From a virus (lineage: Duplodnaviria > Caudoviricetes), in IMG/VR virus record IMGVR_UViG_3300045996_001447, positions 1 to 58,770 of that record: a DNA stretch of 58,770 bases; one strand, written 5' to 3'. This document shows, in pieces, positions 1,831 to 41,238 of the stretch (position 1 is the first letter of the stretch; each line of letters opens with the position of its first letter). Position numbers and translations under genes: made by a program. The notes under the pieces are model-generated. The model did not search any database. It saw nothing but the letters and a program-made list of their open reading frames with translations, and was not told the origin of the DNA.

Positions 1831-1845
1831 GGTTCAGTCCTCCTC

Positions 1846-2229: not shown

Positions 2230-2253
2230 GGTGTGTGTCCTCTCTCGTCAGAA

Positions 2254-3078
2254 TCAGGTGGTGGAGGTGGCGTTCTGGCGGGTGCCCTTGCGCTCCTGGT
2301 GCAAGGCGCGGCCCGCGGCCACCCCGACGGGGCCGGACTGCTGTCCGCGTCCCCCCTGGCCGATGCCGCCTCCCGGGCGACCACCGGATCCGTTCGTTCC
2401 CCCACCGGCCGAGAGCCGGGGGTTGTTCTTGACCGCCTCGGTGACCTTGTCCCCGAGGCGGGTCGTGAAGTCCTGGGCGGTCGGGTCCAGATCGGACACC
2501 GAGTCCAGGAACGTGCGCGAGTCCAGCAGCGCGGCCGGATCGGCGCCGGACTCGGGAGCCGTGCGGTAGACCGCCAGCTCGACCGAGCGCATCCGCGCCG
2601 TGTCCTGGGCCTTGGCCAGGTCCGCGGCCAGCTTGTCCGGGTCCGGCTTGCCGTCACCGTCCACATCGATCCCGAACGCCGCGGCCACCTTGCGCTGCAG
2701 GTCGGTCAGGGTCTGCTCGACCTCGCGCTTGCCGGTGCGGTGCTCGGCGGCCTCCCCGCGGTAACCCCGAGCAATCTCGATCAGCTCGTCGCGGTCCAAG
2801 TCCTCCAGCTTGCGGCGCCGGTCGGTGTTCTGCTGGCCTCCGCCGCTCTGGCCGCCCGAGCCGGAGCCGGTGCCGGTCCCACCACCGGCTCCCCCGCGGT
2901 CCCCGGCGCGTGCGCCGTCACCCGACCCACCGGTCTGGCCGCCGTTCTGCTGGCCACCGGTGGAACCGTTCTGCTGGCCGCCGGTCCCGGACCCGCCGGA
3001 ACCGCCAGATCCCCCGCCCGAGCCGCCCTCGTCATTGAACAACGACAGCAGCAGGTCCGAGGTGCGCGTGATGTGCAT
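2254..3078 (-). CDS. scaffolding protein
   Basis: Gly-rich N-terminus, helical middle (RGEAAEHR; LLDSRTF), synteny. Confidence 0.8.
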   Translation of the reverse strand: MHITRTSDLLLSLFNDEGGSGGGSGGSGGSGTGGQQNGSTGGQQNGGQTGGSGDGARAGDRGGAGGGTGTGSGSGGQSGGGQQNTDRRRKLEDLDRDELIEIARGYRGEAAEHRTGKREVEQTLTDLQRKVAAAFGIDVDGDGKPDPDKLAADLAKAQDTARMRSVELAVYRTAPESGADPAALLDSRTFLDSVSDLDPTAQDFTTRLGDKVTEAVKNNPRLSAGGGTNGSGGRPGGGIGQGGRGQQSGPVGVAAGRALHQERKGTRQNATSTT

Positions 3079-3133
3079 GGGTTACTGGCCTCCTGGGCCG
3101 ATCGGTCCGGCACCCGGCCGGACGGTGGTGGGT

Positions 3134-3997
3134 CTACGCAGCCCGCAGGACCGGGCCCAGTTCTCCGTGGTCGGTGACCCGCACCCGGACCTTGGCCAGG
3201 TCCGTGGCGCGGTTGGATCCGGCCACCTCGTAGATCCGGAACAGGTCGTCGGTGTTCAGCTCGCGGCCGGGATCGTGCTCGCGGGTCACCGGCATCACGT
3301 CGCACGCGCAGTGCGTGTGCAGCGGCATCAGTTCGGAGGTGCGGTAGAGCCGGTCCGCGGCCACCAGGCAGAGCCCGCACGGCCCGCCGGAGGTCATCTC
3401 GGGGCGGACCAGGCGCCGGTAGCCGATCGCCTCGTCGGTGCCGTCCAGCACCTCGTACGCGGCCGAGCGCATCGCCATGCCCAGGTCGTTGGACACCTGG
3501 CGCTCCAACCGGTCCAGCCCGGCGGCCTTGGCCTCGGGCTCCGGCGCGCCGATCGACCGGGCATAGCGCCACTGCTCGAACGCCCGGTAGTAGACGCTCT
3601 CCGGGTCGGTGACCTTGCGCAGCGTGGCGCCCAGCGCGATCGTGCCGGCCACCGCGGCGGTGACCGCGATGTGGCGCGAGGTGATCTGGGACAGCACCGC
3701 GCGCAGGTAGGCCGCGGTGGAGTTGGCCGTGGCCGACTGTCCACCCTGGATCAGCCGGAACGTGGCCCGGGCGGCCGCGGCGATGGCCTCGGGGTCACGC
3801 GGGTCGGCCACCGCGGCGTACTCACCGGTAACCAGGCGCAACGTGGTGGACGCGATCCGGAGCCGCGCCTGGGCCTGGCGCTCGGCCAGACTCAGCGCGG
3901 CCCCGGCCGCACCGCCGGGGAGCAGGGTCAGCGCGGGAGCGGCCTGGTAGGCCGCCTGGGCGGCCAGGGCCTCGGCCAGCGGGGCCGGGCTGGTCAC
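3134..3997 (-). CDS. MuF-like minor capsid / maturation protein
   Basis: GYRR...CGLC.VAADRLY...LMPLH.HCAC motif directly after portal. Confidence 0.75.
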   Translation of the reverse strand: MTSPAPLAEALAAQAAYQAAPALTLLPGGAAGAALSLAERQAQARLRIASTTLRLVTGEYAAVADPRDPEAIAAAARATFRLIQGGQSATANSTAAYLRAVLSQITSRHIAVTAAVAGTIALGATLRKVTDPESVYYRAFEQWRYARSIGAPEPEAKAAGLDRLERQVSNDLGMAMRSAAYEVLDGTDEAIGYRRLVRPEMTSGGPCGLCLVAADRLYRTSELMPLHTHCACDVMPVTREHDPGRELNTDDLFRIYEVAGSNRATDLAKVRVRVTDHGELGPVLRAA

Positions 3998-5637
3998 GAG
4001 CCCGACGAGCCCGACGAACTACCGGAACCGCCCGAACTGTCCGAGCCCCCGGACGAACCGGAGCCCGACGAGGTCGACGACCCGCCGGACGAGGTCCCCG
4101 GAGACCCCGCCGAGGCAGCGGAGCCCCCAGCGGCCCCCGTGCCGGTCGTGGCCGGGGTCTCCGGGGCGAATATCAGGTCGTCCGCGCGCTGCGCGCGCAG
4201 CCGCGGCAGGTCGTCCGGCTCGTACTGCAGCACGTCCACCATCCGGGACTCCCACGGCAGGCCCGCGGTGACCGCCTGGGCGGCCGCGGCGTAGCGCTCG
4301 GAGAGGCTGAACCGCTCGATGGGCGACCACAGGGTGGTGATCGTGAGCGGGTCGTCCCCCTCGGTGCCGGGTAGGTAGCCGAACGCCAGCGAGAACGCCT
4401 CGGCGAACCCGGACGAGCACCGGTTTCGCCGGTCCTTGGCCCGAAAGATCAGCCCTTCCTTGGCCGAGCTGGCGCCCTCGGCGGAGGCGTTGGCCGCGTC
4501 CGGCATGAAGTGCTGGACCGGCATCCGCAGCACCGCGGCCAGGTCCCGGACGTCGTCGCGCACGCTGGTGAGTAGCGGCCCGAGGTCCACCTGGCCGGAC
4601 TCCCACAGTTCCGCGGTAGCCGGCAGCAGCCACAGCGCCGAGGGGTCGTTGGTGAAGATGTCGGAGTAGTCGATCGGGTTGCCGTCCTTGTCCTTGGTCG
4701 GCACACCCTTGATCGCCCGCTGGCGGAACGCCTGCAGCGTGGCGATCACGATCCGCTGTAGCAGCATGTGGTTGACCCGGTCCAGGTGGTCGGTGTGGTT
4801 CTCGAACTCACCTTCCGAGTCGTGGTTGGCGAACCGGGCCACCGCGCAGCGGTCACCGATGGAGCCGGACAGGTCCCGGTCCACGGTGATCTCCCACTGG
4901 CGCGGGTCGAACCGGAACCGGCGCCGGGTCACGTCCAGGGACGAGGTTCCGCGCACGCTGTCCCCGGTGCGCTCGAACTTCACCGCGCGCCCGGGCGGGT
5001 AGAGCCACCCGACATCGCGCTGGGCAATCGGGTCGTAGTACAGCTTGAGCCCCATGATCACTCGCTGGGGCATCTCCGGGTCCTGCTCGGTGATCACCCA
5101 GCGCGGGTCCTCGGCGGTGATGATCGGCAGGGCGCCGCGGACCGGGACGCCGGCCGCGTCGGTGCGCGGCGGTCCGGTGATGGTGTAGCTCTCCCCCATC
5201 ACCAGCATTTTCTCGATCACCTCGGACGCCTGGACGTCCATGGAGTTGGCCGCCCAGATCCGGCGGGCCAGCGCGTTGGTGGTGTCGTTCGGGACCGGCG
5301 CCAGCGCCGAGCCGACCTGGCGCGCGGAGCCGGTGGCCACGGCCACCGAGTCGATCGTGGCCTGGTCGGTCTCCACCCGGCACCCGATCGGCTCCAGCCG
5401 CTCGGCCACGGTGCGGGTGACCAGCTCGGCCAGGTTCATCCGGGCCTTCTGCTGGAACGCTTTCCAGACCCGTTCCCGGTTGCGCGACGCGGCCGGCGAG
5501 CCCAGCTCGGGCAAAGGCGGGTTGCCCTTGTGCCGGTCCCAGAGCGGCTGGATGCGCTTGCGGCGCTCCATGAGCGCGTCGGCCAGGCGCTGGATCCACC
5601 AGCCGTCCGACTCGGGGACGTCCACGTCGTTGATCAC
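3994..5637 (-). CDS. portal protein
   Basis: 547 aa, SPP1 gp6-like actinophage portal motifs (QAFRQRAIKG, LWES, ANASAEG); G/S-rich tail. Confidence 0.9.
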   Translation of the reverse strand: MINDVDVPESDGWWIQRLADALMERRKRIQPLWDRHKGNPPLPELGSPAASRNRERVWKAFQQKARMNLAELVTRTVAERLEPIGCRVETDQATIDSVAVATGSARQVGSALAPVPNDTTNALARRIWAANSMDVQASEVIEKMLVMGESYTITGPPRTDAAGVPVRGALPIITAEDPRWVITEQDPEMPQRVIMGLKLYYDPIAQRDVGWLYPPGRAVKFERTGDSVRGTSSLDVTRRRFRFDPRQWEITVDRDLSGSIGDRCAVARFANHDSEGEFENHTDHLDRVNHMLLQRIVIATLQAFRQRAIKGVPTKDKDGNPIDYSDIFTNDPSALWLLPATAELWESGQVDLGPLLTSVRDDVRDLAAVLRMPVQHFMPDAANASAEGASSAKEGLIFRAKDRRNRCSSGFAEAFSLAFGYLPGTEGDDPLTITTLWSPIERFSLSERYAAAAQAVTAGLPWESRMVDVLQYEPDDLPRLRAQRADDLIFAPETPATTGTGAAGGSAASAGSPGTSSGGSSTSSGSGSSGGSDSSGGSGSSSGSSGS

Positions 5638-6592: not shown

Positions 6593-8275
6593 TTAGTATA
6601 CCCGGATTGGTACGAAAACTTGATCCTCGGTGATCCCCGCGGCCACCGCGTCACAGCGGGCCTCGTAGGCCAGGACCGCGGCCATGCACGCGTCGATCTT
6701 GTCCGGGCTCTGCGGGAACGGCTTGCCGATCAGGTCCCCCGAGCGGGTGGGCCGGACTCGGGCGTTGCCGATGTGACGGGTGAGCGTCGGCTGGTCGGCG
6801 TGGCTCAGCGCAACGTCCTGGGCGGCCTCGTGGAACCGCTCCAGCGCGGTCACCATGCGCCGGGAGTGCCCACCACCGGTCCACCACTCCATCGGGCGTG
6901 AGCCGCTGGCCTTGAGCCGCATCGCGTCGCCCCACTCGGCCTGCCAGCGGTCAAGGTAGTCCTGCCAGTGGGCCGGGTCGGCGTAGACCGCGGCCACGTC
7001 GTAGGTCTCCATCGCGCGGGTGAACGCCGCGTCCACCGCGACCCGGTCCACCTGCCAGTCCTTGGCGTACGGCGGGCGCTCCCAGCAGCCGATCAGCTCC
7101 AGGTACCCGTCGGAGATGCGGGCGGCCACCAGGGCCGTGGCGTCGTCGCGGATCGACCCGTCGAACCCGAGGGTGACCAGGTCCCCGTCGGCCAGCGGCG
7201 CCGGCTCGTCCTCACCCCGGTCGCGGCGGGCCTTGCGTCCGCACGCGTGCCAGGTCTGCAGGTCCATCCAGGCGTCCTCGCCAGAGATGATGTGGTTCAG
7301 GTAGAACCGGGCGGCCATCTCCGGCGGGGTGCCGGGGTCCAGGTACTCGACGACGATCCGTTCGATGTCCACCCAGGGCGCGCCCGAGTAGGCCCGGCGC
7401 AAGCCACGACGCAGCGACTCGGGGTCCCGGGGATCGGTGTCGGCCGGGGCTTCCAGGGAGTCGTAGAGCAGGCTCCGGCGCACCGTGCGGCCCTCGGTCT
7501 GGGCGACGTAAGCGCCGTGCGTGGCCTCGGCGACCGAGTCCTGGCCGGGGACGAACGCGTTGCACGTCTCGATCGACCGGCCGCCGATCTTGCCGAGGTT
7601 ACGGCGGATGACCTTGGCAAGATCGTGGCCGCCGTTGGACGCCAGCCACCACTCGGTCTCGTCCAGCACACAGAACGTCGGCCGGGCGCCCTCCGCCGCG
7701 TGCGGGGACGCCGTGATGATCTCCAGGCGGCCCCCGCCGGGGGTGTAGACCCGCGTCTTGCCGGTGTCCAGGCCGTACCGCTCCCGCACCCGCGACCCGG
7801 GCGGCACGAGCGCGGTCACCATGGACATGGTGTTGGTGGTCTGGGCCTCGGCGGTGGCCGCGATCTGCACCCAGGGCATCGGCACCGACTTGCCCACCAG
7901 GAACTCGAACCCGGCGGAGTCGTCGGTGGAGTCGAATCCGGCGAACCGGACCGGCCCCACCAACTCGCACAGTGACAACGCGGCTACATAGGGTGACTTG
8001 CCAGTCCCTTTCGAGCGGCGGATCGCCGCGCGGTTGTGCAGGAACCGGCCGTCGTCGTCGATCGCGTAGTACCAGAGCAGGAAGTGGATCTGGGCGTCGG
8101 TGAACCGCCAGGGCTCCCCGGCGTGGTCCCCGTCGGGCTGGACCAGCCAGGTGTGTGCCCACAGGATCACGCCCCAGCCCAGCGTCCGCATCGGGTCGGG
8201 CTCGTGCTCGGGCAGCGTGTCCGAGAGCGGGAACACCTCGGCCGGCGCCTCGGGAGCGTCCGGGGTGAGCGTCAC
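6593..8275 (-). CDS. terL: terminase large subunit (packaging operon)
   Basis: Walker A RSKGTGKS, Walker B VLDETE, nuclease LGFDGS..DDATA and KIDA motifs; upstream of portal. Confidence 0.95.
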   Translation of the reverse strand: MTLTPDAPEAPAEVFPLSDTLPEHEPDPMRTLGWGVILWAHTWLVQPDGDHAGEPWRFTDAQIHFLLWYYAIDDDGRFLHNRAAIRRSKGTGKSPYVAALSLCELVGPVRFAGFDSTDDSAGFEFLVGKSVPMPWVQIAATAEAQTTNTMSMVTALVPPGSRVRERYGLDTGKTRVYTPGGGRLEIITASPHAAEGARPTFCVLDETEWWLASNGGHDLAKVIRRNLGKIGGRSIETCNAFVPGQDSVAEATHGAYVAQTEGRTVRRSLLYDSLEAPADTDPRDPESLRRGLRRAYSGAPWVDIERIVVEYLDPGTPPEMAARFYLNHIISGEDAWMDLQTWHACGRKARRDRGEDEPAPLADGDLVTLGFDGSIRDDATALVAARISDGYLELIGCWERPPYAKDWQVDRVAVDAAFTRAMETYDVAAVYADPAHWQDYLDRWQAEWGDAMRLKASGSRPMEWWTGGGHSRRMVTALERFHEAAQDVALSHADQPTLTRHIGNARVRPTRSGDLIGKPFPQSPDKIDACMAAVLAYEARCDAVAAGITEDQVFVPIRVY

Positions 8276-8675: not shown

Positions 8676-8896
8676 GTGACGCCCTCCGGCAGGGCGATCC
8701 AGGCCACCTGGTGGGCGTTGATCACGTCACGGCGGGAGCCGAACAACTGGACCGCCGGGTCCCCGCCGTGGCCACGCCAGGCGCTGCGGATGGCGTCCAC
8801 GATGGCCTGGGCATTGGAGACTAGACAGGCCTGGAGCCGGTGCTGGTGTCCGCCGGCCATGTGGATCACTAGGGTGACCCGGCGCTCGTCGGTCAT
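8672..8896 (-). CDS. hypothetical protein
   Basis: ATG overlaps TerS stop (TGATG). Confidence 0.55.
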   Translation of the reverse strand: MTDERRVTLVIHMAGGHQHRLQACLVSNAQAIVDAIRSAWRGHGGDPAVQLFGSRRDVINAHQVAWIALPEGVT

Positions 8897-9324
8897 CAGG
8901 CACCCCGCGACTTGCGTCGTTGCGCGGACAGGCTGGCCACCGCGCCGTCCCGGGCGCTGTCGCCCGCGGCGTCCGGGCGGGCCAGCTCCATCTTGGCCCG
9001 GCGCCGATCCCCGGCCGTGGCCAGCAGGGACGAGCATCCGGACAGGAACGCCGACAGGGCGTTACCGCCCATCGGGCCCTTCCACGCCAGGTGGCGGGAC
9101 AGGTCCTCGGCCAGAACCCAGGCCGTCTCGGCGTCGCTCTGCTGGTAGTCGATCGCCTGGGCGCTCTGCTGGAGGCTCAGGTACCACGCCTCGGCGGCCT
9201 CGTGCCAGTCCCCGGGCTCACGCCAGGTGACCGCCATCGGGGTCACCTCGTCGAACGGGTCGTTCTGGGCGCCGTGCCCGTGTCGCATGTCCGGCCGCTT
9301 GCCGACCGGCCCGCGTTCTCCCAT
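8896..9324 (-). CDS. terS: terminase small subunit
   Basis: GGAGG RBS; MG.RGP.GKR, WH..A..WY.SL..S.Q, LL.T.GDRRR motifs of actinophage TerS. Confidence 0.85.
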   Translation of the reverse strand: MGERGPVGKRPDMRHGHGAQNDPFDEVTPMAVTWREPGDWHEAAEAWYLSLQQSAQAIDYQQSDAETAWVLAEDLSRHLAWKGPMGGNALSAFLSGCSSLLATAGDRRRAKMELARPDAAGDSARDGAVASLSAQRRKSRGA

Positions 9325-9399
9325 GATCGCCTCCTGGGTGACCAACTAGCCCGTAACGCCTGGTCACGGGGTGAAACTGTCGCCTGGACCCGCCAGGGA

Positions 9400-9814: not shown

Positions 9815-9964
9815 CACACTAATTAGTATCAGCACACTAATTAGTATCAACAGTAATTAGTACCAGCACACTAATTAGTATCAACAGTAATTAGTATCAG
9901 CACACTAATTAGTATCAACAGTAATTAGTATCAGCACACTAATTAGTATCAGCACACTAATTAC
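9815..9964. repeat. AT-rich tandem array, 9 copies of TAATTA(GTA) in 18/16-bp units
   Basis: cores at 9820, 9838, 9854, 9872, 9888, 9906, 9922, 9940, 9958. Confidence 0.95.
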
Positions 9965-10058: not shown

Positions 10059-10075
10059 CACCACACATATGCCCT

Positions 10076-10112
10076 GATACTAATTCCTCTACGGGGGAGA
10101 GGAATTAGTATC
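10076..10112. repeat. 15-bp perfect inverted repeat carrying the array motif
   Basis: GATACTAATTCCTCT / AGAGGAATTAGTATC. Confidence 0.9.
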
Positions 10113-10127
10113 GGCCTGAGTGTGTGC

Positions 10128-11007: not shown

Positions 11008-11678
11008 GCGATGGCCCGGGCCGGTCGGTCGGTCATCCGGCGCAGGATCCGCCGACCCGCGCGCAGCCACTCCGAGGTGCCCCAGCTCGTCCGGCAGGCC
11101 CGGCACGTCATCACCGAGGGCGTGTCCCCGCGTCCGATGTAGGCCATCACGGTGCCGTCGCAGTGGGTGAGCCGGTTCGGGTCGTCGTCGGTCGGTGTCC
11201 ACTCCGGGCACGGGCCCACCTCGAACCGGCTGGACTCGGCCGGGATGTCCACGGCCACCCGGGCCTCGTACACCGCGGTGATGATCTCGGTGTAGATCCG
11301 GTCCGACTGGGCCGAGGCACGCAGAGCCGGGAGCGCGCGCCGGATCGCCCGTGCCCGCTCGGCCAGCCCGATCGGTACCGGGTCCGGGTCCAGGGCGCCG
11401 CTCCAGGTGGCCAGGACGACGTCCAGGTGGCGCAGGGCGGCCGAGCCGTGCTCGGACCAGGGCAGGGGCCTGTCGTGGCCCGCACGGCGCGCCTGGGGCC
11501 CCATCCGGTCGGCTCGGACGAACGTCGTCATCAGGTCCTCGGCCAGGTCCCGGTCGGCGACCCAGGCCAGCTCGTCGGCCAGATAGGCCGCATCGATCCG
11601 GCACAGGGTCAGCCCGTTGGGGCTCAAGGACCCGCAGACCGAGCACGCGGTACGGGTCGGGGACGTGGATCCAGGCAT
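11004..11678 (-). CDS. Cys-rich putative late transcription regulator
   Basis: CxxC...LC N-terminus, GPCP...C.G...CxxC...W C-terminus; position before packaging genes; GGAGG RBS. Confidence 0.6.
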   Translation of the reverse strand: MPGSTSPTRTACSVCGSLSPNGLTLCRIDAAYLADELAWVADRDLAEDLMTTFVRADRMGPQARRAGHDRPLPWSEHGSAALRHLDVVLATWSGALDPDPVPIGLAERARAIRRALPALRASAQSDRIYTEIITAVYEARVAVDIPAESSRFEVGPCPEWTPTDDDPNRLTHCDGTVMAYIGRGDTPSVMTCRACRTSWGTSEWLRAGRRILRRMTDRPARAIA

Positions 11679-11739
11679 CGGGTGCCTCCACAGGGGAGCG
11701 TGTGGGTGGACTACGCGGGGTTGAGCCTATCGGCGCACG

Positions 11740-14700
11740 TCACACCTCCGCCCGGTCGTGCTCGGCGCCGTAGCAACCGGACCAGCGCTGGGCCAGCCGG
11801 CCGGCCTCGGCCTCGATCCGCACGGTGCGGTCCTTGCCGGGCAGCGCCAGCTCCCAGTTGAAAGCCTCGGTGATGACCCGGACCAGCTCGGGCGCGTCGG
11901 CCCGGGGCACCTCGAACACGGCCTCGTCGTGCACCTGGGCGCGCAGCATCCGGGCCACGTCGTCCGGCAGGCGCAACAGGCACTCGGCCATGGCGTCCCG
12001 GGCGCAGCCCTGCCCGATCAGGGCCACGGCCTGGGTGTAGGCCCGGTTCTGGTCCACCCGCATCAGGCGGCCGAACCCGTTGTCCAGCCAGCCGGTGGAC
12101 TCCCCGATGGCTCGGGTCTCGTCCTTCCACTGCTGCAGGCGCGGGAACCGCTCGTTCATCGTGTTGATCACCCGCTGGGCCTCGGCCTCGGGCACTCCGG
12201 TGGTGGCCACCAGCTTGTCCAGACCCATCCCGTAGGGCAGCCCGTGGGTGATCGCCTTGACCCGGTCGCGCAGCGTCTTGGGCTCGGCGTCGTAGGCCCG
12301 GTCACCCCAGACCATCCGGGCCACGATCTCGTGCGCGTCCAAGCCGGGCTCGAACAGTGCCAGGTACGCCGGGTCCTGGGAGTGCACCGCGATCGACCGA
12401 GAGTCGATCTGGGACAGGTCGATCGCGAACAGCGCGTGCTCCGGGTCGGTGGCGGTGAACACCGCGCGCTCGATCACCTTGCCCCCGCGCTTGCCGAACA
12501 CGGTCAACCCCGGCTTGCGCACGCTCCAGCGCCCGGACGCCTGGAACGTGGCCACCTGCGGATGGACCCGGCCGTCGTCGTGGGTGTGGGCCAGCGCGGT
12601 GCCGTAGACGGTCCGCACACCCCCGACGTCGGCCACCACGTCGCACAGCGCCGTGATGGACTCCCCGTTGGGGTGCTCGGCATAGGTCTCGGCCATCGCC
12701 CGGATGCCGTCCCCGGAGAACGACGCCCGCCCGCCCTTGGTGCGCGGGATGTCGGCGGGGTCCACCCCGAGCTGCAGCAGTGCGCGCAGGATGGCCTCCC
12801 GGCCGCCCTTGGTGGCCGCTGGCGAGTCGGCGGGCTTCCCGTCGGCCTTGGTGGTGGGGATGCCGTACTCGCGCACCAGGCGCCGGGTGAGGTCGTTCTT
12901 GCGCCCGTAGCCGCTCCAGAACCGGCGCTGGAGCAGGTGCTGGTCCACCGCGAACCCGGTCATCCCCATCTCCGCGGCGATGGCGTGCACCCGGTGTTCC
13001 CGGAGCAGGTAGGCGCGGCGCTCGGCGGGCAAGGTGACGATCTCGGCGAGCTGGGCGCGGGCCACCGCGGCGGTGGTGTCGACATCCCCGGCGCAGTACG
13101 CCCGGTACTCGGGGTCCTCGGTGGGGATGGCGTCGTAGCCGCCGTGCACCTTGGCCAGCCGGTCGATCTCGTCGATCTTGCCGGGGATCTGCCGGCGCTC
13201 GGCCACCGCGTCCAGCTTGAACCACTTCATGGCCCGATCGATCTCGCCCGGGCGGCCGCCCTCGTTGAGCACCGGGTGCAACACCGACTCGGTGATCATC
13301 GTGTCGTGCAGCCGTCCGGCCCGGGCCAGCGCGAGCACATCCACCCGCGGGTCGACGCGGGACAGGACCGGCAGATCGAACGCCACCCCGTTGTGCGTGA
13401 TCACGCGCTGTGACTGGGCCACCGCGTCGGTGACGGCGTCCGGACCGGTGTGCACGACGGTGCTCCCGGACTCGCGCAGGCCGGCGATCCGGACGAACCC
13501 GCGGGGGTCGGCGGTGGTGTAGCCCGAGGCCGCGTCCCCGGTCTCCAGATCGACCACGACGGGCCCTCGGACGGCCTCCGGGAGGGCCTCGGTGTTGCCG
13601 TGTTGCCGATATGGAGCATCTTCCTCCCACGGTCCGGAAACACACACCTCCGTCCTCGGCGTGTCGTCGGCGTGTCGGATCTGAGTGTGTGTGTTCTCCG
13701 TGAGAGGGGTTCCCCTGTCTATATCGGCAACATCGGCAACATCGGCAACCGAATCGCTCTGAACAGGGGTTTCGATGATCGACTGTGTTGCCGATATGGG
13801 TTCGATGTCGGCAACATCCGAGGTCGATATCGGCAACACTTCCGAGGTACCCGGCACCGTGGGTACCGGGTGCTCCGGCGGTGTTGCCGATATCGGGGAG
13901 GGCAGCGGGGCGATATCGGCAACACCGTCCGGGGACCCTCCGTTGAGCCACCGCAGACCGGTCCAGGTGAGCCGGATCGACGAGCCGTCGCGGATCTTGC
14001 GCGGGTTCTCCAGGCGGGGGTCGATCCCGAGCACGCGCTGAAGCTGGGAGGTGAAGTTGTTGCGTCCGCGGTCGGCCGGCATCCGCTCGGTGGTCACGTT
14101 CTGTGCCCACCACTTCCGGCACGTCTCGTGTACCTCGGAGGCCAACAGCCGGTCGTCCTCGTCGTGGGTGACCACCAGGTGGGTCTCGGCGAACACGGCC
14201 AGGTGGTCGGACTCGGCCTGGGCCTCGTGCGTGGCGGCCAGCACGGCGTCCGGCTCGGCCAGCCCGCGGGTGAGGTAGTCGGCCAGCCCGGTCAGGCACC
14301 GGTTGAGCACCCCGGACAGCTCGTGGGCGGCGATGTGGCGCTCCAGGGTGGGATCCTCGTGACCCTCCACCGACACGGTGAACGGGATCTCCCGGTAGCG
14401 CATCCAGAACGCCGAGTCCGAGCGGGCCACCGGCGGGCGGTCGTTGGCCGTGACGATCAGCGTGTGGCTCGGGTCGAACGTGACGTCGTTCTCGCGCATC
14501 AGGCGCCCAGTCAGCCGGTCCCCACCGGTCCAGGACTTGATCCGCCCGGTGTTCCAGCCCTTGCCGGCCTCGGGCTCCTGGGCGGTGGCCAGCCGGCGCC
14601 CGTTCAGCTTGGCGATCTCCTGGGTGTGCGCCTCGAACTTGGCCTCCTGCAGGGCCCGGGGATCGATCGTCACGGCCATCTCGCCGAACAGCCGTTCCAT

Positions 14701-16152
14701 GGTCCGGATCAGCGCGCCCTTGCCGTTGCGCCCGGAGCCGACGAACACCGCGAACACCTGGGCGTCCGCGCGGACCTCCCCGAGCATCGCCACCCCGAAC
14801 AGGCGCAGCACGTAGGCGCGGACCTCGGGGTCGGGCAGGATCTCGTCCAGGAACGCGTCGAACCGCGGACAGGTGGCCTCGGGGTCGTAGATCACGTCCG
14901 AGCCGACGGTCAGCAGTAGCTCCGGGTCGTGTTCGCGGAACTCGCGGGTGAACAGGTCCACCGTGCCGTTGCCGGCCACCCAGAGCGTCGGGTGCGAGTC
15001 CAGCTCGTCCCGGCCGACGTGCAGGTCCGAGTGCCCGCCCGCTCGGGCCAGCACCGTGGTGATCTTGTTGTGGCCCAGCAGCATCCGCGCGGTGTCGTCC
15101 AGCTCGCGGGCCTGGTCCCCGTCGGAGCCCTGGGCCGCGGCCCGGTAGGTCTGGGCGACGTCCACCAGGAACCGGGCCACGTCGTCGTACGGCGCCCGGG
15201 AGCTGACCGGCTCCCAGCGCCCGATCCGGTAGCGCAGCCACCGCTCGGTGTCGAGCAGGAACCGCCACCGGGTCCGCGCGGTGTCGGCCCAGGTGGTGGC
15301 CAGCGCGGTGTCGTTGGGGTCCAGCAGCCCGGCCCCGTCGGTGCCCAGTGCGGAGCGCTCGCGGGCCCGGGGCTTGGGCATCCGGTCGGCCGGCTTGGCC
15401 CGGGCCATCTCGGTGATCCGGGAGACCAGCGTGCGCCGGGCCTCGTCGGTGACCGTGCGCCCGATCAGGTCGTCCACGCCGTTGGACCCGCGCACCGGCA
15501 ACCGGGAGAACGTGACCGACTCGGCCCCGTAGCCCTCGCACGCCAGCCCGAGCGCCACCCCGGCGTCGTAGACGTTGCGGTTGGTGCCGGCGTCGGCGTC
15601 GAGCACCACGGTGACGTCGCGTCCGTCCACGATGGCCAGGCCGGCGTCGGCCAGCCCGTCGCGGCTCCAGGCGTCACAGCCGGCGATGGCCAGGACGGTC
15701 ACGTCGTCCTCGGCGTAGTGGGCCACCGCGCGGGACTGGAACGAGCCCTCCACGATGAGCACCGGCCCGTCGCGCCGGGTACCGCGCCGGACCAGCCCGA
15801 GCGCCACGTGACCCTCGGTGGGCCAGACGTACTTGCGGACCTCGGGCTCTCCGCCGGGGGTGGTCGTCTCGATCGGCACGTGCGGCCGGTACTGCCAGCC
15901 GGGCTCGGGCTCCGGGTCCCCGCCGGGCACCGGGACCGGGTCCCAGCGCAGCAGCAGCCCGGGCACCGTGACGTACGGGTGGGCGCGTAGCTCGTCGGGT
16001 AGCTCGGTGTGTTCGTGTACCTCGGTGATGCCCAGCCCGGTCGCGGCGTCCCACGTGAGCCCGCGCCGGGTCAGGATCTCGGTGGCGGCCGCGGTGAACG
16101 TGCTGGTGACGGCCGACTCACGCGGTTCTCTGTCGGCCTCGGGGTGTGTCAT
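11740..16152 (-). CDS. fused TOPRIM primase / D5-like SF3 helicase / family A DNA polymerase with 3'-5' exonuclease
   Basis: IVEG and LDAD (TOPRIM); GSGRNGKG, AQEPE, VTAN (SF3); DLET, HN..FD, YC.GD (exo); DLSQID.R, R...K...HG..YG, VHDE (PolA A/B/C); GAGGT RBS before ATG 16152. Confidence 0.9.
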   Translation of the reverse strand: MTHPEADREPRESAVTSTFTAAATEILTRRGLTWDAATGLGITEVHEHTELPDELRAHPYVTVPGLLLRWDPVPVPGGDPEPEPGWQYRPHVPIETTTPGGEPEVRKYVWPTEGHVALGLVRRGTRRDGPVLIVEGSFQSRAVAHYAEDDVTVLAIAGCDAWSRDGLADAGLAIVDGRDVTVVLDADAGTNRNVYDAGVALGLACEGYGAESVTFSRLPVRGSNGVDDLIGRTVTDEARRTLVSRITEMARAKPADRMPKPRARERSALGTDGAGLLDPNDTALATTWADTARTRWRFLLDTERWLRYRIGRWEPVSSRAPYDDVARFLVDVAQTYRAAAQGSDGDQARELDDTARMLLGHNKITTVLARAGGHSDLHVGRDELDSHPTLWVAGNGTVDLFTREFREHDPELLLTVGSDVIYDPEATCPRFDAFLDEILPDPEVRAYVLRLFGVAMLGEVRADAQVFAVFVGSGRNGKGALIRTMERLFGEMAVTIDPRALQEAKFEAHTQEIAKLNGRRLATAQEPEAGKGWNTGRIKSWTGGDRLTGRLMRENDVTFDPSHTLIVTANDRPPVARSDSAFWMRYREIPFTVSVEGHEDPTLERHIAAHELSGVLNRCLTGLADYLTRGLAEPDAVLAATHEAQAESDHLAVFAETHLVVTHDEDDRLLASEVHETCRKWWAQNVTTERMPADRGRNNFTSQLQRVLGIDPRLENPRKIRDGSSIRLTWTGLRWLNGGSPDGVADIAPLPSPISATPPEHPVPTVPGTSEVLPISTSDVADIEPISATQSIIETPVQSDSVADVADVADIDRGTPLTENTHTQIRHADDTPRTEVCVSGPWEEDAPYRQHGNTEALPEAVRGPVVVDLETGDAASGYTTADPRGFVRIAGLRESGSTVVHTGPDAVTDAVAQSQRVITHNGVAFDLPVLSRVDPRVDVLALARAGRLHDTMITESVLHPVLNEGGRPGEIDRAMKWFKLDAVAERRQIPGKIDEIDRLAKVHGGYDAIPTEDPEYRAYCAGDVDTTAAVARAQLAEIVTLPAERRAYLLREHRVHAIAAEMGMTGFAVDQHLLQRRFWSGYGRKNDLTRRLVREYGIPTTKADGKPADSPAATKGGREAILRALLQLGVDPADIPRTKGGRASFSGDGIRAMAETYAEHPNGESITALCDVVADVGGVRTVYGTALAHTHDDGRVHPQVATFQASGRWSVRKPGLTVFGKRGGKVIERAVFTATDPEHALFAIDLSQIDSRSIAVHSQDPAYLALFEPGLDAHEIVARMVWGDRAYDAEPKTLRDRVKAITHGLPYGMGLDKLVATTGVPEAEAQRVINTMNERFPRLQQWKDETRAIGESTGWLDNGFGRLMRVDQNRAYTQAVALIGQGCARDAMAECLLRLPDDVARMLRAQVHDEAVFEVPRADAPELVRVITEAFNWELALPGKDRTVRIEAEAGRLAQRWSGCYGAEHDRAEV
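13593..13924. repeat. iteron-like ATATCGGCAACA repeats, direct and inverted, inside helicase-polymerase linker (candidate ori)
   Basis: forward copies 13721, 13732, 13741, 13805, 13827, 13913; inverted 13593 (partial), 13601, 13786, 13882. Confidence 0.85.
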
Positions 16153-16192
16153 ACTGACCTCGCATGGCGTCATTGCTCGGTGTCGTGTACGG

Positions 16193-16314: not shown

Positions 16315-16548
16315 CTACCCGGAGTTATCGGAGCGGGTGTTCCCCTGCTCCACCTGCTGAGCGGGTCGTACCAGCTCGTTTAGCTCGGTGCGGTTGTAGA
16401 GCGGCTTACGGAGCCCGGCCGCGTGGTACTTGCGGATCTTCCCCTGGCGTACCAGCCGGTCGAACGTCGCCACGGCCATGTTCAGATGCGCGGCCGCCGC
16501 CTCCCGGCCTAGCCACTCTCCCGATGAGTCGTTCACTGTCTGCGGCAT
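16315..16548 (-). CDS. excisionase/MerR-like HTH DNA-binding protein
   Basis: WL...AAAAHL.MA..T..RLV..GKI; leaderless ATG 7 nt after TGnTACTGT. Confidence 0.8.
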   Translation of the reverse strand: MPQTVNDSSGEWLGREAAAAHLNMAVATFDRLVRQGKIRKYHAAGLRKPLYNRTELNELVRPAQQVEQGNTRSDNSG

Positions 16549-16555
16549 GTCGGCC

Positions 16556-16612
16556 ACAGTAGCACTGGGGTCGGCTCGGGTGGTACTGCACTCGTCTGGA
16601 GTGTGCTAGAAT
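16556..16612. promoter_or_regulatory. divergent extended -10 promoters at the arm junction
   Basis: minus TGcTACTGT (-10 at 16561-16556); plus TGcTAGAAT (-10 at 16607-16612). Confidence 0.6.
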
Positions 16613-16670: not shown

Positions 16671-16901
16671 ATGCGTGAGTTGCACCAGGTGCACCGCCCT
16701 GGATGGGAGCACGAGACCCGGACCGGCCGGACCTACATGGTGTGGGCGCCGCGAGCCGACCGGCCCCACTGGACCGCGTCCTGGCAGAACGCCGAGAGCA
16801 CCGATGGCGACTTCCGCCGCGGGGACAGCCTGGACGGAGTCTTGTCGATCTTCCCGCCCGCCATGCGCCCGCTGTTCCGTCATATGGCAGGGACGTCGTG
16901 A
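16671..16901 (+). CDS. hypothetical protein
   Basis: first ORF of right arm, GTGA-coupled to next gene. Confidence 0.6.
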   Translation: MRELHQVHRPGWEHETRTGRTYMVWAPRADRPHWTASWQNAESTDGDFRRGDSLDGVLSIFPPAMRPLFRHMAGTS

Positions 16902-17215
16902 GCACGCGGATCATCGCGTGCACTCAGTCGGACGTTCTCGGGGACGGTTGCCCCGGGTGTGGCGGTTGGCTGCACCGGGTCCAGCGGGATGGGTTCGTGG
17001 GTCCCGGTGGGATGCGGTTCTGCGACGAGGAGTGCATCGCCGACGACTACGAGCACCGCCGTCGGGAGCACATGCGCGCTCACTACGGAACGCGAGACCT
17101 GCTCTGCAACTGCGCCGAGTTCTGCGCTCCGGCCGGCCTGCCGACCGTGGAGATGGTCCGGGAGTACGAGGACTATCTGGCGACCCTCGTCGACGGACGG
17201 GAGCCGACGCCGTGA
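16898..17215 (+). CDS. Cys-rich hypothetical protein
   Basis: GTGA overlaps at both ends; CxxC, FC..EC. Confidence 0.6.
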   Translation: MSTRIIACTQSDVLGDGCPGCGGWLHRVQRDGFVGPGGMRFCDEECIADDYEHRRREHMRAHYGTRDLLCNCAEFCAPAGLPTVEMVREYEDYLATLVDGREPTP

Positions 17216-19608
17216 GCCCGATCGACATGGAGGCGCTGGCCGAGACGATCGCCGAGGACGCGCGCACCGAACCCGACCGCGACGCCCCGCGGCCGACGCT
17301 GCGCCCGTACCAGGTGCGTCTCCTGGATGCGATCTTCACCGGCTGGGACGCCGGGCTGTCCCGGGTGGCCATCTCGATGGCGACCGGCGGGGGTAAGTCG
17401 GTGGTGTTCGCCGAGGTGGCGCGCCGGCACCTGGCCGCGCATCCGGACGCCGGGCCGGTGGTGCTGCTGACGCACCGCCGCGAGCTGGTGGAGCAGGCCG
17501 CCGGACACTTTCGTCGGGCTGCGCCCGACTTGCGCGTGTTGGAGGTGATCGGCTCCCCGGGCCCCTACGGCTCGGCCAAGCGGACGTCCACGGTGCGCCG
17601 TTGGCGTCGGGCGGACATCCTGGCCACCAGCGTGCAGACCCTGGCCTCGGTGAACACCCGCGACGTGTTCCCCGACCCCAGCCTGGTGATCGTGGACGAG
17701 TCGCACCACGCGATGGCCCAGTCCTGGACGACCGTGCTCACCGCGCTGGGCGCGTTCTCCGGTAACACCCGCGCGCTCGGGGTGACCGCCACCCCGTTCC
17801 GCGAGGACCACCGCAGCTTCTCCGATGTCTGGCAGGCGATCGTGGCCTCGGTGGACATCTCGTGGCTGATCGCCCACGGGCTCGACGCCGAGGGCAACGA
17901 GGTGCCGGTGGCGCCCGGTCACGGTTACCTCGTGCCGCCGGATCTGCGCCACCTCACGATCGATGGGCTGAACCTGGCCGATGTCCCGACGTCGCGCCGC
18001 TCGGGCGCGGTGGACTACCGGGAGACCGAGCTGGCCGATGCGATGGAGGAGGCCGGCGCGTTCGACATCGTGGCCCAGGCCGTGGTCTCCGAGTTGCCCG
18101 GGCGCAAGGGCGCGGTGTTCGCCCCGACCGTGGCGTCCTCCCAGGCGCTGGCCGGCCGGCTGACCGCGCTGGGCCAGCGCGCCGAGCACCTGGACGGCGA
18201 GACCCCCAAGCCCGAGCGCAAGGCGATGCTGGACCGGTTCCGGGCCGGGACGACGCGCTGGCTCTGCAACGTCGGGATCATCTCCGAGGGGTTCGACGTG
18301 CCGGACATGGACGCGGTCGTGCTGGCCCGCCCCACCCGGTCGCGGATCTTCTTTCGACAGTCGGTGGGCCGAGCGCTACGCCCGAGCCCGGGCAAGACGG
18401 GCGCGATCGTGCTGGACGTGGTCGGGGCCAGCGACGGGCACACGCTGGCCGGCGTGGAGTCGTTGACCGATGCCGACGTCCTGGACTCGGTGGCCGGCGA
18501 GGGGCTCACCGAGCTGCTGTCCCGCTCCGAGCGGGCCCGGGCCGGGCGGGCCGACCGGATCGCCGCGCACATCCGTGACGCGCGCGACGTGCAGACCCGC
18601 GCCGAGCACACGGTGGAGCAGATCAGCGTCACCGCCGAGGGGATGCGCGAGGCCCTGCCGGGGCTGGCCACGTTCCCCGAGCGAGCCCGCGCCGCGCTGC
18701 ACCCGGTGCTCGACCACACCACCGCGGTCACCGACCAGGAGAGCCCGGCGGTGCTGGAGCACTCGGGCGCGATGACCCTGGACGAGCTGGGCCGTATCGA
18801 GCGGGTCTGTGCCGACGAGGTGGCCGCGGCCCACAAGCGCCTGGCCGAGCTGGACACGCTCAAGGATCTGATGCGCCAGGCGCTGGCCGAGCTGCGCGAG
18901 GACCCCGAGGGGGAGGTGGCCCGAGCACTGGTGACCGGTCGGGTGGCCACGGTGCGCGGGCAACTGTTCGGCGAGGCCGAGGAATGGATCCGCCCGGCCG
19001 CGCCCGGGCACGCCGGAGCGCTGCAGGTGCGGGGCGGCGGTCGGAACGCCCGTCCGACCCATCCCGCCCGGGTGGGGTGGCTGCTGCGCTCCCCGGCCGG
19101 GCACCTGTTCGCGCCGATCCAGATCCCGGACCCGGCCGACCCGCGGCACGCCACGGCCTACGGCACGACCGAGGTCTACGCGGGCGAGCGTCGCCCGGAC
19201 GGGCTCGTGGTGGCCGCGGCACTGCCGGGCGGTCGGTGGTTCCCGGTGACCTGGTCCTCGGTGGACCAGAACGTCACCGAGATCGGGCGCACGCTGTCCG
19301 ACGAGTCGGACGCCTACCGGCTGGTGGTGGAGTACGCGATGGAGAACACCGCCGCCCCGAACCTGCTCAACCCCGGCTCGGCGTGGCGCCGCAAGCCGTC
19401 CCCGACCGGCAACGGCGCCCGGGCGATGGCTCGTCGCGTTGCTCCGAACGCGGAGATCCCGGACGACGCGACCGCCGGGTACGTCTCGGACGTGATCAGC
19501 ATGGGCAAGTTCGGCCACGTCGTGGACCGCCTCGCCTCGTGGGTGGCCACACAGACGGCCACCATGTCCACCAGCAGCTCCCCCGCACAGAACGGAACCT
19601 CGGCATGA
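17212..19608 (+). CDS. SF2 (ResIII/Irc3-like) DNA helicase
   Basis: LRPYQ, ATGGGKS, VDESHH, TATP, SEGFDVP, QSVGRALR motifs. Confidence 0.92.
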   Translation: MSPIDMEALAETIAEDARTEPDRDAPRPTLRPYQVRLLDAIFTGWDAGLSRVAISMATGGGKSVVFAEVARRHLAAHPDAGPVVLLTHRRELVEQAAGHFRRAAPDLRVLEVIGSPGPYGSAKRTSTVRRWRRADILATSVQTLASVNTRDVFPDPSLVIVDESHHAMAQSWTTVLTALGAFSGNTRALGVTATPFREDHRSFSDVWQAIVASVDISWLIAHGLDAEGNEVPVAPGHGYLVPPDLRHLTIDGLNLADVPTSRRSGAVDYRETELADAMEEAGAFDIVAQAVVSELPGRKGAVFAPTVASSQALAGRLTALGQRAEHLDGETPKPERKAMLDRFRAGTTRWLCNVGIISEGFDVPDMDAVVLARPTRSRIFFRQSVGRALRPSPGKTGAIVLDVVGASDGHTLAGVESLTDADVLDSVAGEGLTELLSRSERARAGRADRIAAHIRDARDVQTRAEHTVEQISVTAEGMREALPGLATFPERARAALHPVLDHTTAVTDQESPAVLEHSGAMTLDELGRIERVCADEVAAAHKRLAELDTLKDLMRQALAELREDPEGEVARALVTGRVATVRGQLFGEAEEWIRPAAPGHAGALQVRGGGRNARPTHPARVGWLLRSPAGHLFAPIQIPDPADPRHATAYGTTEVYAGERRPDGLVVAAALPGGRWFPVTWSSVDQNVTEIGRTLSDESDAYRLVVEYAMENTAAPNLLNPGSAWRRKPSPTGNGARAMARRVAPNAEIPDDATAGYVSDVISMGKFGHVVDRLASWVATQTATMSTSSSPAQNGTSA

Positions 19609-21110
19609 CCGACACCGAGCACGAGAACACCGACGGCACCCCGGAGCCGACGGTCACGTTGCACTACGGGGACTGCCTGGAGGTGCTGCGGACCCTGCCC
19701 GACGACTCCGTCCACTGTGTCATCACGGACCCGCCGTACGGGCTGGCCGAGCACAAGCCCGCCACGATCGTCACCGCGCTGACCGCGTGGGCGAACGGGG
19801 ACCGCGACCACGTCCCCACCGGGCGCGGGTTCATGGGCCGGGACTGGGACGCGTTCGTCCCGCCGCCCGCCGTGTGGGACGAGTGCCTACGGGTGCTCAA
19901 GCCCGGTGGGCACCTGGCCGTGTTCGCCGGGTCGCGCACGGTGGACCTGATGGGGCTGTCGATCCGGTTGGCTGGGTTCGAGATGCGGGACGGGATCGCG
20001 GCGTGGCTGTACGGGTCCGGGTTCCCCAAGTCGCTCGAAGTCGGCAAGGCGATCGAGCGGAGCAAAGTCACAGGAGACGCGTCGCTGATCGTGCGCGACA
20101 TCACCGCTCCCGCCACCGACGCCGCCCGCACCTGGGACGGGTGGGGGACCGCGCTCAAGCCGGCGCACGAGCCGATCCTGATCGCGCGTAAGCCGCTCGG
20201 CGGGACGGTCGCGGCGACCGTGCTCGCACACGGCACCGGCGCGATCAACGTCGACGCGTGCCGGGTTGGTATGTCCGAGCCTGCCCAGGGCGGCCGGTGG
20301 CCGACGAACGTTGTGCTGGCGCATCACCCCGGGTGCGGCCCGGACGAGGCGCCGGGGCCGTGTGTGCCCGGGTGTCAGGTGGCGGAACTGGACCGGCAGA
20401 GCGGGCAACAGCGCGACGGGCTCGCGGTCAAGCGGAACGGTGCATCGACGGGCGGTCTCTATGAGGGCGGTTTCGGGAGGGTCGCGAGCGTTGACCAGGG
20501 CTACGGCGGCCAAGGCGGCGCCTCTCGCTACTTCCCGACGTTCCGCTACCAGGCCAAGGCCCCCAAGCGGGAGCGCCCGACGATCGACGGGAAGGGCTGG
20601 CCCACGGTCAAGCCGCTGGGGCTGATGGAGTGGCTGGTGCGACTGCTCTGCCCGCCGGGCGGCACGGTGCTGGAGCCGTTCACCGGGTCCGGGGCGACGT
20701 TGGAGGCCGCCCGCAACGTCGGGGTGAGCGCCATCGCCGCCGAGCGTGACCGGTTCGCCTACCGGCTGGCTCACGTGCGGCTCGGGTGGGACGACCCGGG
20801 CGACGCGGAGCCGGTCGCCGATCCCGATCCGGTGGTGGTCGAGGTGCCGTCCCCGACGCCGATCTCCGAGGCCGCGTGTGACGTGCACGGCCCGCACCCC
20901 GGGACGGTGGACTGCCTGGACTGCCTGGCCCAGGTGAACACGACGGTGGACCTGGTGGTGGGCACCGCGACTCGGTTCCCGGAGGTGCCGGGGGTGGCCG
21001 AGGCGGCCGAGCGGGCGGAAGCGGCCACGACGGTGGCCGAGGCCCAGGCGGCCCGTGACGACCTCAAGGCGGCCCTGGTCGCGGCTCGGACGAGCCGGGA
21101 GGCGTCGTGA
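19605..21110 (+). CDS. DNA methyltransferase (N4/N6, beta-type), orphan
   Basis: GDC, TDPPY, YGSGFPKS, LKPAHEPI, PTVKP, EPFTGSG. Confidence 0.92.
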   Translation: MTDTEHENTDGTPEPTVTLHYGDCLEVLRTLPDDSVHCVITDPPYGLAEHKPATIVTALTAWANGDRDHVPTGRGFMGRDWDAFVPPPAVWDECLRVLKPGGHLAVFAGSRTVDLMGLSIRLAGFEMRDGIAAWLYGSGFPKSLEVGKAIERSKVTGDASLIVRDITAPATDAARTWDGWGTALKPAHEPILIARKPLGGTVAATVLAHGTGAINVDACRVGMSEPAQGGRWPTNVVLAHHPGCGPDEAPGPCVPGCQVAELDRQSGQQRDGLAVKRNGASTGGLYEGGFGRVASVDQGYGGQGGASRYFPTFRYQAKAPKRERPTIDGKGWPTVKPLGLMEWLVRLLCPPGGTVLEPFTGSGATLEAARNVGVSAIAAERDRFAYRLAHVRLGWDDPGDAEPVADPDPVVVEVPSPTPISEAACDVHGPHPGTVDCLDCLAQVNTTVDLVVGTATRFPEVPGVAEAAERAEAATTVAEAQAARDDLKAALVAARTSREAS

Positions 21111-40986: not shown

Positions 40987-41238
40987 GTGACCGAGCGACT
41001 GCACAACAAGGACTACACGGTGGCCGAGGCGGTCCAGGTGGTTCACACGGTGCGCGACCATCCGGCGCTCTCCGGGTTCCTCACGCGGCGAGACCTGTTG
41101 CGCGCGGCCGGCGTGCTGGCCGACTACGCGGCCGCCACCGGAAACGGGCCGATCAACGTGGCGCCCGGCCGCGCGGTGATCACGATGCCAGACGGCACCT
41201 CGTACGAGATCCCGCTGGTGGGCCGGGTGGCCCGATGA
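40987..41238 (+). CDS. hypothetical protein
   Basis: GGAGG RBS; coupled to next gene. Confidence 0.65.
   Translation: MTERLHNKDYTVAEAVQVVHTVRDHPALSGFLTRRDLLRAAGVLADYAAATGNGPINVAPGRAVITMPDGTSYEIPLVGRVAR

Follow-up and report, generated by a model that had tools for sequence, protein, structure and literature searches.

A fused primase-helicase-polymerase gene in a soil actinophage genome and an origin-like repeat array in its linker

The fused replicase gene

The window analysed here is the whole of virus record IMGVR_UViG_3300045996_001447 (Caudoviricetes), 58,770 bp long, rated 100% complete and about 72% GC (guanine plus cytosine). Its subject is a single minus-strand open reading frame (ORF), 11740..16173, which encodes 1477 amino acids (aa) from its first ATG and joins a primase, a helicase, a 3'-5' exonuclease and a family A DNA polymerase (PolA), with a repeat array lying in the DNA of the linker between helicase and exonuclease. 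A reading made from the sequence alone had reported a stop-free frame of 1470 aa, and this is the length obtained from the second ATG, at 16152. The fused replicase gene accordingly spans 11740..16152 on the minus strand, with its stop codon at 11740-11742. ATG 16152 (M8) is the likely start and better supported than the alternative ATG at 16173, because GAGG is found 6 nt upstream and the N-termini of homologues align there; M1 has no such site. Residue numbers follow the 1477-aa frame throughout. Two of the three reading frames are open across the linker, and a stop-free frame is weak evidence by itself because the DNA is 72% GC; what carries the case for the fusion is its conservation, together with contigs obtained independently.

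Primase and helicase modules

A DnaG-type primase RNA-polymerase domain with TOPRIM occupies aa 24-270 (15364..16104, minus strand), preceded by 23 residues that are predicted to be disordered. Sequence profiles give this region a PHROGs assignment as primase (aa 128-718) and a weak Pfam match to DUF3854 (aa 137-239, E 0.051). A Foldseek search with the whole model was swamped by helicase matches, so the primase domain was folded separately. The resulting AlphaFold2 model (pLDDT 95.1) matched the primase domains of DnaG, T4 gp61 and T7 gp4 with a probability of 1.00 and TMq of 0.5-0.59, the top matches being 2au3, 8dvf_H and 4e2k (E 5e-5 to 1e-4). In a VIA comparison it aligned to 5guj over 208 aa, with Z 14.0 and a root-mean-square deviation of 3.5. 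The TOPRIM motifs EG and DxD claimed from the sequence are present as E142-G and D192-A-D194 within this DnaG fold, and their acids, together with D234-D235, are invariant in 21 aligned sequences. A zinc-binding domain was not found, the only cysteines in aa 1-280 being those at positions 4, 166 and 212.

The primase is followed by a D5_N domain and a superfamily 3 (SF3) helicase core of the D5/P4-alpha/PriRep-like kind, aa 273-640 (14254..15357, minus strand). Pfam places D5_N at aa 295-446 (1.1e-18, 68.3 bits, cut-off 22.4) and DUF5906 at aa 477-584 (2.8e-7, 31.6 bits, cut-off 27.6), and the PDB profile match is C962R of African swine fever virus (ASFV), at 1.1e-29. The structural comparisons agree: VIA aligned the helicase to ASFV C962R (9ivf_B) over 449 aa with Z 31.2, to SaPI5 PriRep5 (7ola_B) over 399 residues with Z 30.1 (model 273-746 against chain 329-765), and to mpox E5 and vaccinia D5 with Z of about 27. 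The earlier assignment to a D5-like SF3 helicase is upheld both by the Pfam matches above their cut-offs and by a fold that matches D5-type SF3 primase-helicases. Residues K485, E533, N577 and R592 are invariant in 19 aligned homologues; from position and the known consensus, we take the last three to be the Walker B acid, the motif C asparagine and the arginine finger.

The helicase ends in a C-terminal helix-helix-beta-hairpin domain, aa 641-746 (13936..14253, minus strand), which is winged-helix-like and is the candidate repeat binder. In the model it contains helices at 678-692 and 707-715 and strands at 725-729 and 732-738. It falls within the range aligned to the C-terminal tier of PriRep5, the alignment ending at model residue 746 and chain residue 765. 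The origin-binding domain of P4 alpha is not among the structure matches listed, a result that is uninformative either way, aa 641-746 not having been folded alone.

Exonuclease and polymerase modules

PHROGs assigns aa 871-1473 to DNA polymerase (phrog_17). Within this region the 3'-5' exonuclease domain covers aa 871-1060 (12994..13563, minus strand; the end is approximate), as judged from phrog_17 and its motifs, and the family A polymerase domain covers aa 1061-1477 (11743..12993, minus strand), as judged from Pfam, profiles and an alignment to Taq polymerase. The exonuclease motifs ExoI (D875/E877), ExoII (N928/D933) and ExoIII (Y1026/D1030) are invariant in the aligned homologues (n=19). 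Pfam finds DNA_pol_A at aa 1193-1444 (4e-35, 121.9 bits, cut-off 34.3), and a residue-by-residue alignment to Taq locates motif A at D1252, motif B at K1306/H1310/Y1314 and motif C at H1415-D-E. ExoI-III and PolA motifs A, B and C are all intact, as had been read from the sequence, and the order primase-helicase-linker-exonuclease-PolA is borne out; across all four activities the catalytic motifs are invariant or nearly so in the 19 aligned homologues. Unlike canonical bacterial Pol I, the protein has no 5'-3' exonuclease family among its Pfam matches at E up to 0.1.

His1310 (nt 12244-12246) aligns to the phenylalanine of the Taq sequence KTINFGVLYG and is invariant in 19/19 homologues. We take the aligned position to be Taq F667, which governs dideoxynucleotide discrimination.

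Is this a single-polypeptide replisome, as the sequence-only reading called it? That term overreaches: a sliding clamp, a single-stranded DNA-binding protein and a zinc-binding domain were not found in the replicase protein, and the phage also encodes a superfamily 2 (SF2) helicase, nucleases and RusA.

A repeat array in both orientations in the linker

The linker between helicase and exonuclease comprises aa 747-870 (13564..13935, minus strand), of which residues 747-780 are predicted to be disordered. It had been described as rich in proline, threonine and serine, and its composition agrees: proline makes up 13.7%, threonine 10.5% and serine 8.9%, the figures for the remaining protein being 5.3%, 7.5% and 3.5%, respectively. 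The idea of a plain spacer does not survive, its DNA being a dense repeat array in two orientations. Codon usage changes here as well, with the GC content of third codon positions at 0.60-0.72 in codons 761-880 as against 0.85-1.0 elsewhere in the ORF.

The array is iteron-like and consists of ten copies of TGTTGCCGATAT, six of them exact, on both strands of 13593..13924, within codons 750-858. Three copies are on the plus strand, at 13601, 13786 and 13882, and seven on the minus strand, including those at 13721, 13730, 13739, 13805, 13827 and 13913, with a partial copy at 13593-13600. At up to two mismatches, 10 of the 15 matches in the window, including all six exact ones, lie in the array, within 324 bp; about 1.0 would be expected in the whole window, and none of 100 shuffles reached 15. 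Strand and frame decide whether a copy is translated as VADI, VLPIS, ISAT or YRQH. Because copies occur on both strands and in several reading frames, the repeat is a feature of the DNA and not of the peptide.

The arrangement of the copies has a definite plan. Read along the coding strand, with F and R for the two orientations, the order is FRFFRFFF, then a spacer of 112 nt, then R and the partial copy. The repeat-free spacer between the opposed sets, 13611..13722, is a candidate unwinding region. Of all 300-nt windows in the genome, 13595-13894 has the second-lowest GC content.

Reality and spread of the fusion

Between 11600 and 14669 the window agrees letter for letter with contigs from two other soil studies, without a single substitution or indel; the comparison used contigs and not raw reads. 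Those of one study (X2) cover 13134-13898 and 13914-14669, and those of the other (X3) cover 11600-13806 and 13800-14173. The public contigs break near 13800-13914, inside the repeats, and each break is spanned by the other run. A stop or frameshift in the linker would have undone the fusion as first read; the independent contigs are identical across it and free of indels. One RNA run yielded a single 151-nt contig, at 13290-13440, which is not evidence of transcription.

How widespread is this architecture? A protein search returned 64 matches at E <= 1e-10, of which 52 are PolA-bearing, with lengths of 1277-1706 aa, and the combination of D5_N, DUF5906 and PolA is listed for 28 of the 64. 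Among 41 related phage or viral loci, 25 have a fused frame and five distinct loci are split; in a further eight the polymerase ORF has no detectable upstream partner, two of these being cut by contig ends. Ten related metagenome loci have no stops across the junction in the coding frame, against 3-13 in the other two frames, and the Poisson chance of zero stops, computed for seven loci, is 2e-5 to 7e-3. On a tree of the PolA domain the fused or split state changes at least three times. The fused gene is real and maintained and is not an artefact. The architecture had been described but has drawn little attention, and in soil data it is common; the sequence-only reading, which held the joining of a full PolA to be rare, overstated the point, because a fusion of this kind (Pas55 of phage phiAsp2) was already in print and many homologues are fused.

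Eight fused homologues (P0025-P0028, P0037, P0043, P0045 and P0050) carry an archaeo-eukaryotic primase (AEP) Prim-Pol domain, PF09250. In P0025 the Pfam scan puts PF09250 at the N-terminus, in place of the DnaG-type primase. P0025-P0028 are 1688-1706 aa long and share 44-46% identity over 90% of the query. To judge from these sequences, one primase module has been exchanged for another while the rest of the fusion stayed conserved.

Two of the split loci, L026 and L037 (phage TP1604), have the primase-helicase and polymerase ORFs in the same frame with one stop codon between them, at 5098-5100 and 5062-5064, respectively. This single-stop split may represent recent fission or read-through.

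Array layout in relatives

The same layout, built from other repeat sequences, is found at the same helicase/polymerase junction in relatives. In L004, whose protein is 53% identical, the repeat is GTCTGCCCCA in the order FRFFFFF ... RR, with a spacer of 100 nt (GC 0.49). A TCTGCCG core is shared by L045 (9 copies; spacer 110 nt, GC 0.46), L048 (8 copies; 116 nt, GC 0.44), L055 (9 copies; 126 nt, GC 0.46) and L102 (6 copies, the junction being cut by the contig end), while L047 has an ACTGCCG core (6 copies; 107 nt, GC 0.46). L018 contains 17 copies of ACCCTCCACA with a spacer of 75 nt (GC 0.51). In the stronger arrays, the junction accounts for 9/10, 9/10, 8/9, 9/9, 6/6 and 17/17 of the matches in each 4-10 kb locus. 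Weaker arrays of 4-7 copies are present in L028, L039, L040 and L030, and L043, which does not exceed its controls with 10-mers, shows this layout when a 9-mer is used (6 copies). Three further locus labels, L044, L046 and L086, denote the same contigs as L004, L005 and L032.

Split relatives show where the array goes when the genes are separate. In L029 it occupies the intergenic gap that separates helicase from polymerase, in the order FFFRFF, a 96-nt spacer and RRR, and it forms the top-scoring window of that locus. L026 has FF, 110 nt and RR near the end of the helicase ORF. No repeat excess was seen at the junctions of the split loci L002, L037 and L031. Among the polymerase-only loci six were negative for an array, and L006 had too little upstream DNA.

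The linkers of 26 fused ORFs were scanned with exact 9-mers and with 11-mers allowing one mismatch, against other windows of the same ORF. The linker exceeds all other windows of its own ORF in the window gene, L004, L018, L028, L039 and L040, with ties in L030 and L024.

An element containing GATC, (T)GATCA or GATCTT, is present in the left repeat set at 7/7 junctions (the window, L004, L043, L045, L047, L048 and L055). It also occurs in the spacer of the window, L045, L047, L048 and L055, and the phage encodes an N6/N4 DNA methylase.

L040, a viral contig of 122 kb, contains a further repeat at 844-2360, upstream of its fused gene, in 22 copies and with a period of about 72 nt. This may encode a repeat protein or be a CRISPR-like array.

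Comparison with known systems

The closest published precedent for the fusion is Pas55 of phage phiAsp2, named as a fusion of SF3 helicase, DnaG primase and PolA in the available text of a survey that describes two such triple fusions (Kazlauskas, Krupovic and Venclovas 2016; PMC4889955). Pas55 (YP_024841, 1415 aa) is, like the window protein, one polypeptide with the same domain order, and both phages are actinophages with genomes of about 58 kb. The two proteins are 34% identical in the primase (aa 23-288) and 38% in the exonuclease-polymerase (aa 874-1468). Pas55 differs in the middle 580 residues (aa 289-873), which give no BLASTP alignment, and in having no Pfam match to D5_N or DUF5906. 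Its linker zone has a repeat score of 3, equal to the best elsewhere in the gene and thus without excess, and it belongs to a separate PolA clade. In the Streptomyces phages YDN12 and TP1604 and their relatives the same domains occur in the same order, DUF3854, D5_N and DUF5906 followed by PolA, at about 30% identity; these phages differ in using two genes, and the junction yielded no repeat array in YDN12 or TP1604 (score 3).

Repeats inside an initiator gene have a precedent in phage lambda, where the iterons of ori lie in the linker-coding part of gene O. Lambda O differs in being neither helicase nor primase nor polymerase. The winged helix of P4 alpha binds the origin; this protein differs from the window protein in having no polymerase and an ori outside the gene. 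Its domain order is given as DnaG-type primase, SF3 helicase and C-terminal winged helix in the part of the survey available (PMC4889955).

The other well-known combination is PREX of the apicoplast, described in the accessible text of a 2023 reclassification of PolA as a TOPRIM primase, a hexameric helicase and a proofreading PolA in one polyprotein (PMC10201439). PREX and T7 gp4/gp5 differ from the window protein in having a superfamily 4 (SF4) helicase of the DnaB/Twinkle type, and the T7 proteins are separate. The contrast with the SF4 helicase of PREX, drawn already in the sequence-only reading, is sound, the window helicase being SF3 by both profile and fold. The PolA of PREX belongs to an Aquificae-like cluster. 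In the portion of the reclassification that was available, the actinophage D29-like cluster is listed with "no known partners", and helicase fusions are mentioned only for PREX and hot-spring phages (PMC10201439).

The layout of the array matches that of the origins of staphylococcal pathogenicity islands (SaPI). According to the accessible part of a recent preprint, SaPI origins lie downstream of pri-rep, with iterons in opposed orientation on the two sides of an AT-rich region, which in SaPI5 measures 102 bp; the iterons are bound by the winged-helix C-terminal domain of the helicase, a beta-hairpin reading the bases (10.64898/2026.10.17.759575). SaPI5 PriRep5 (PDB 7OLA/7OM0), like the window protein, consists of a primase, an SF3 helicase and a C-terminal winged helix. 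The SaPI ori and the window array share opposed repeats with a spacer of about 100 bp between them, and both come immediately after the part that encodes the helicase. They differ in that the SaPI ori follows the stop codon of a protein lacking a polymerase, whereas the window array is in frame and is followed by the exonuclease-PolA. The SaPI hosts are also different: these elements are Staphylococcus satellites, while the window is a high-GC phage.

A candidate origin inside the replicase gene

The most probable reading of these data is that the gene carries the core replicase in one polypeptide and that its linker DNA doubles as a cis element, most likely an origin for self-loading of the helicase. 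The linker is read as a translated origin because its layout corresponds to that seen in origins where SF3 helicases load themselves and because the helicase is structurally close to PriRep5. We infer that the array acts as an origin, that the C-terminal domain binds the repeats, and that the enzyme works as the full-length protein. The cumulative GC skew has its minimum at about 12.5-13.5 kb, which lends the reading weak support.

How would such an element work? The enzyme comprises, in order, a DnaG-type primase without a zinc finger, a hexameric SF3 helicase of the D5/P4-alpha/PriRep type and a winged-helix-like domain; a disordered linker connects these to a family A polymerase that has proofreading but no 5'-3' exonuclease. 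Two opposed sets of repeats of about 12 bp flank a lower-GC spacer of about 110 bp, directly 3' of the part encoding the C-terminal domain of the helicase. The helicase domain would load at the repeats and the spacer would melt, the primase and polymerase arriving on the same chain. Without a stop codon the origin would itself be transcribed and translated, and would become the tether that carries the polymerase.

A broader proposal, which is plausible but falls a little short of being probable, concerns the whole soil actinophage clade. In these phages the origin would have been absorbed into the replicase gene, with its repeats, recognised by the winged helix, and its spacer translated as a hinge, the enzyme would load there and bring all three activities to the origin in a single step, and repeats and hairpin would diverge together into specificity groups. 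The hairpin reads ...RDGSSIRLTWTG where the repeat is GTTGCCGAT, ...GSGQRTTWVG where it is TCTGCCCCA, and ...DSKLTWTG where it has the TCTGCCG core. This agreement between hairpin and repeat class is suggestive of a specificity link.

Several observations weigh against an origin in the linker or against its generality. The agreement of hairpin and repeat class is confounded by the relatedness of the loci, and L045 and L102 are near-copies. Only 6/14 metagenome loci exceed their own controls, with no repeat excess in the other 8, and 18/26 fused ORFs, including phiAsp2 Pas55 and its clade of 15, have no repeat excess in the linker; the fusion therefore needs no such array. The GC content of the spacer in the window, 0.60, is only mildly low, and no single contig bridges the whole array. 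The Walker A motif, GSGRNGKGA (aa 479-487, nt 14713-14739), has no serine or threonine after the lysine, where ASFV C962R reads GKT at the place aligned to GKGA; among the 19 homologues the variants are GKGA in nine, GKGT in seven, GKST in two and GKTT in one. Finally, the window contains a second array, at 9815-9963, of about 8.6 direct units of 18 nt with the core TAATTAGTATCA and a GC content of 0.29-0.41, which is non-coding. It is the lowest-GC region of this 72% GC genome and lies in a non-coding gap of 700 nt, about 470 nt upstream of the small terminase gene (terS), with an inverted pair of its motif at 10075/10102 (10075-10113) forming a hairpin-like site. A core, TATCRGCA, is common to both arrays, which hold 10/12 of its matches in the window against 0.87 expected. 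The second array may be a packaging site, the true origin, a partner site or a regulatory array.

Could the single polypeptide be illusory? Repeats can mislead assemblers, and the public contigs break within them; the identity of the contigs of two other studies over the whole linker, without indels, argues against a sequencing or assembly artefact or a frameshift in the record, as do the dozens of homologues that share the fused frame. The chance that such an artefact explains the fusion is negligible, and it was rejected on the strength of those contigs. A different objection accepts the open frame but holds that it mainly yields two proteins, a primase-helicase and an exonuclease-polymerase made by separate initiation or by cleavage, with the fused product minor or absent. 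An in-frame GTG at aa 843 (13645..13647, minus strand), which GAGGA precedes by 5 nt, could serve as an internal start for a putative exonuclease-polymerase of 635 aa; YDN12 has adjacent separate genes for a 725-aa primase and a 669-aa polymerase, L026, L029 and L031 are also split, and the repeated changes of state on the PolA tree point the same way. Nevertheless, the GTG is not conserved, P0004 having a threonine at that column, and in the 10 related loci the coding frame stays open through low-GC DNA where the other frames have 3-13 stops, which argues that ribosomes read through. On balance a mainly two-protein outcome is unlikely.

The repeats, for their part, could be ordinary low-complexity peptide repeats with no role at the DNA level. 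The linker is indeed rich in proline, threonine and serine and predicted to be disordered, and VAD-like peptides recur in the linkers of homologues. This explanation is hardly credible, given that 3/10 copies lie on the opposite strand, that unrelated peptides come from several frames, that codon bias collapses in the linker and that the equivalent array of L029 is untranslated; the copies on both strands and in several frames led to its rejection. A more serious alternative, though still an improbable one, accepts the fusion but gives the linker repeats a different DNA role: they may be operator sites, may form a promoter or regulatory region for the polymerase within the gene, or may be an auxiliary site comparable to the crr of P4, the origin being at 9815-9963. 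It draws on the low GC content of that AT-rich array and the TATCRGCA core shared with the linker repeat, on a gene with an HTH_17 domain that abuts the replicase gene, and on the Shine-Dalgarno-like GAGGA and GTG inside the spacer. The opposed sets with a spacer of about 100-125 nt after the helicase, however, recur in relatives that have no comparable AT-rich array in 3-kb flanks; the linker layout matches the plan of the SaPI ori, and the position of the AT-rich array relative to terS is a usual one for a packaging site.

Significance

The fused architecture has been described before; what is new and testable is the origin-like array inside the linker. In the literature covered, no description was found of repeats or an origin within the linker of a fusion of this type, most subscription journals and the original phiAsp2 papers lying outside that coverage, and the array, conserved in plan but not in sequence, looks new. 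The fused primase-helicase-polymerase is a compact natural enzyme of a type already known, and a candidate for primer-free amplification. The array offers a testable case of dual coding in which the sequence of a protein linker is apparently dictated by origin repeats.

If the linker array is indeed an origin, it would place the origin for a group of uncultured actinophages, whose origins are rarely known, and would link phage replicases to the self-loading helicases of SaPI. The relatives would then supply sets of origin repeats with their matching binding domains, in which the evolution of initiator specificity could be followed.

Genome context

The window has the gene set of a siphovirus, as judged from PHROG and Pfam scans, and the closest isolated phages are Streptomyces and Actinoplanes phages, with protein identity of only about 30-36%. 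The portal, protease, decoration and major head proteins are encoded at 769-5637, the main large terminase (TerL) at 6593-8275, terS at 8896-9345, an endolysin at 47489-48601 and the tape measure protein at 54931-58752. There is also a replication and recombination block, with the SF2 helicase at 16675-19608 and the N6/N4 DNA methylase at 18984-21110; HNH, Cas4-like exonuclease and RusA genes belong to the same block.

Directly upstream of the replicase gene is a gene of 80 aa with an HTH_17 domain (excisionase/MerR-like), at 16315-16557 on the minus strand, which is a possible regulator or an alternative binder of the repeats. A second gene resembling a large terminase is found at 41235-42713 on the plus strand, with a match to phrog_38 (1.9e-63) and a weak Pfam match to the RNaseH-like domain of the T7 terminase.

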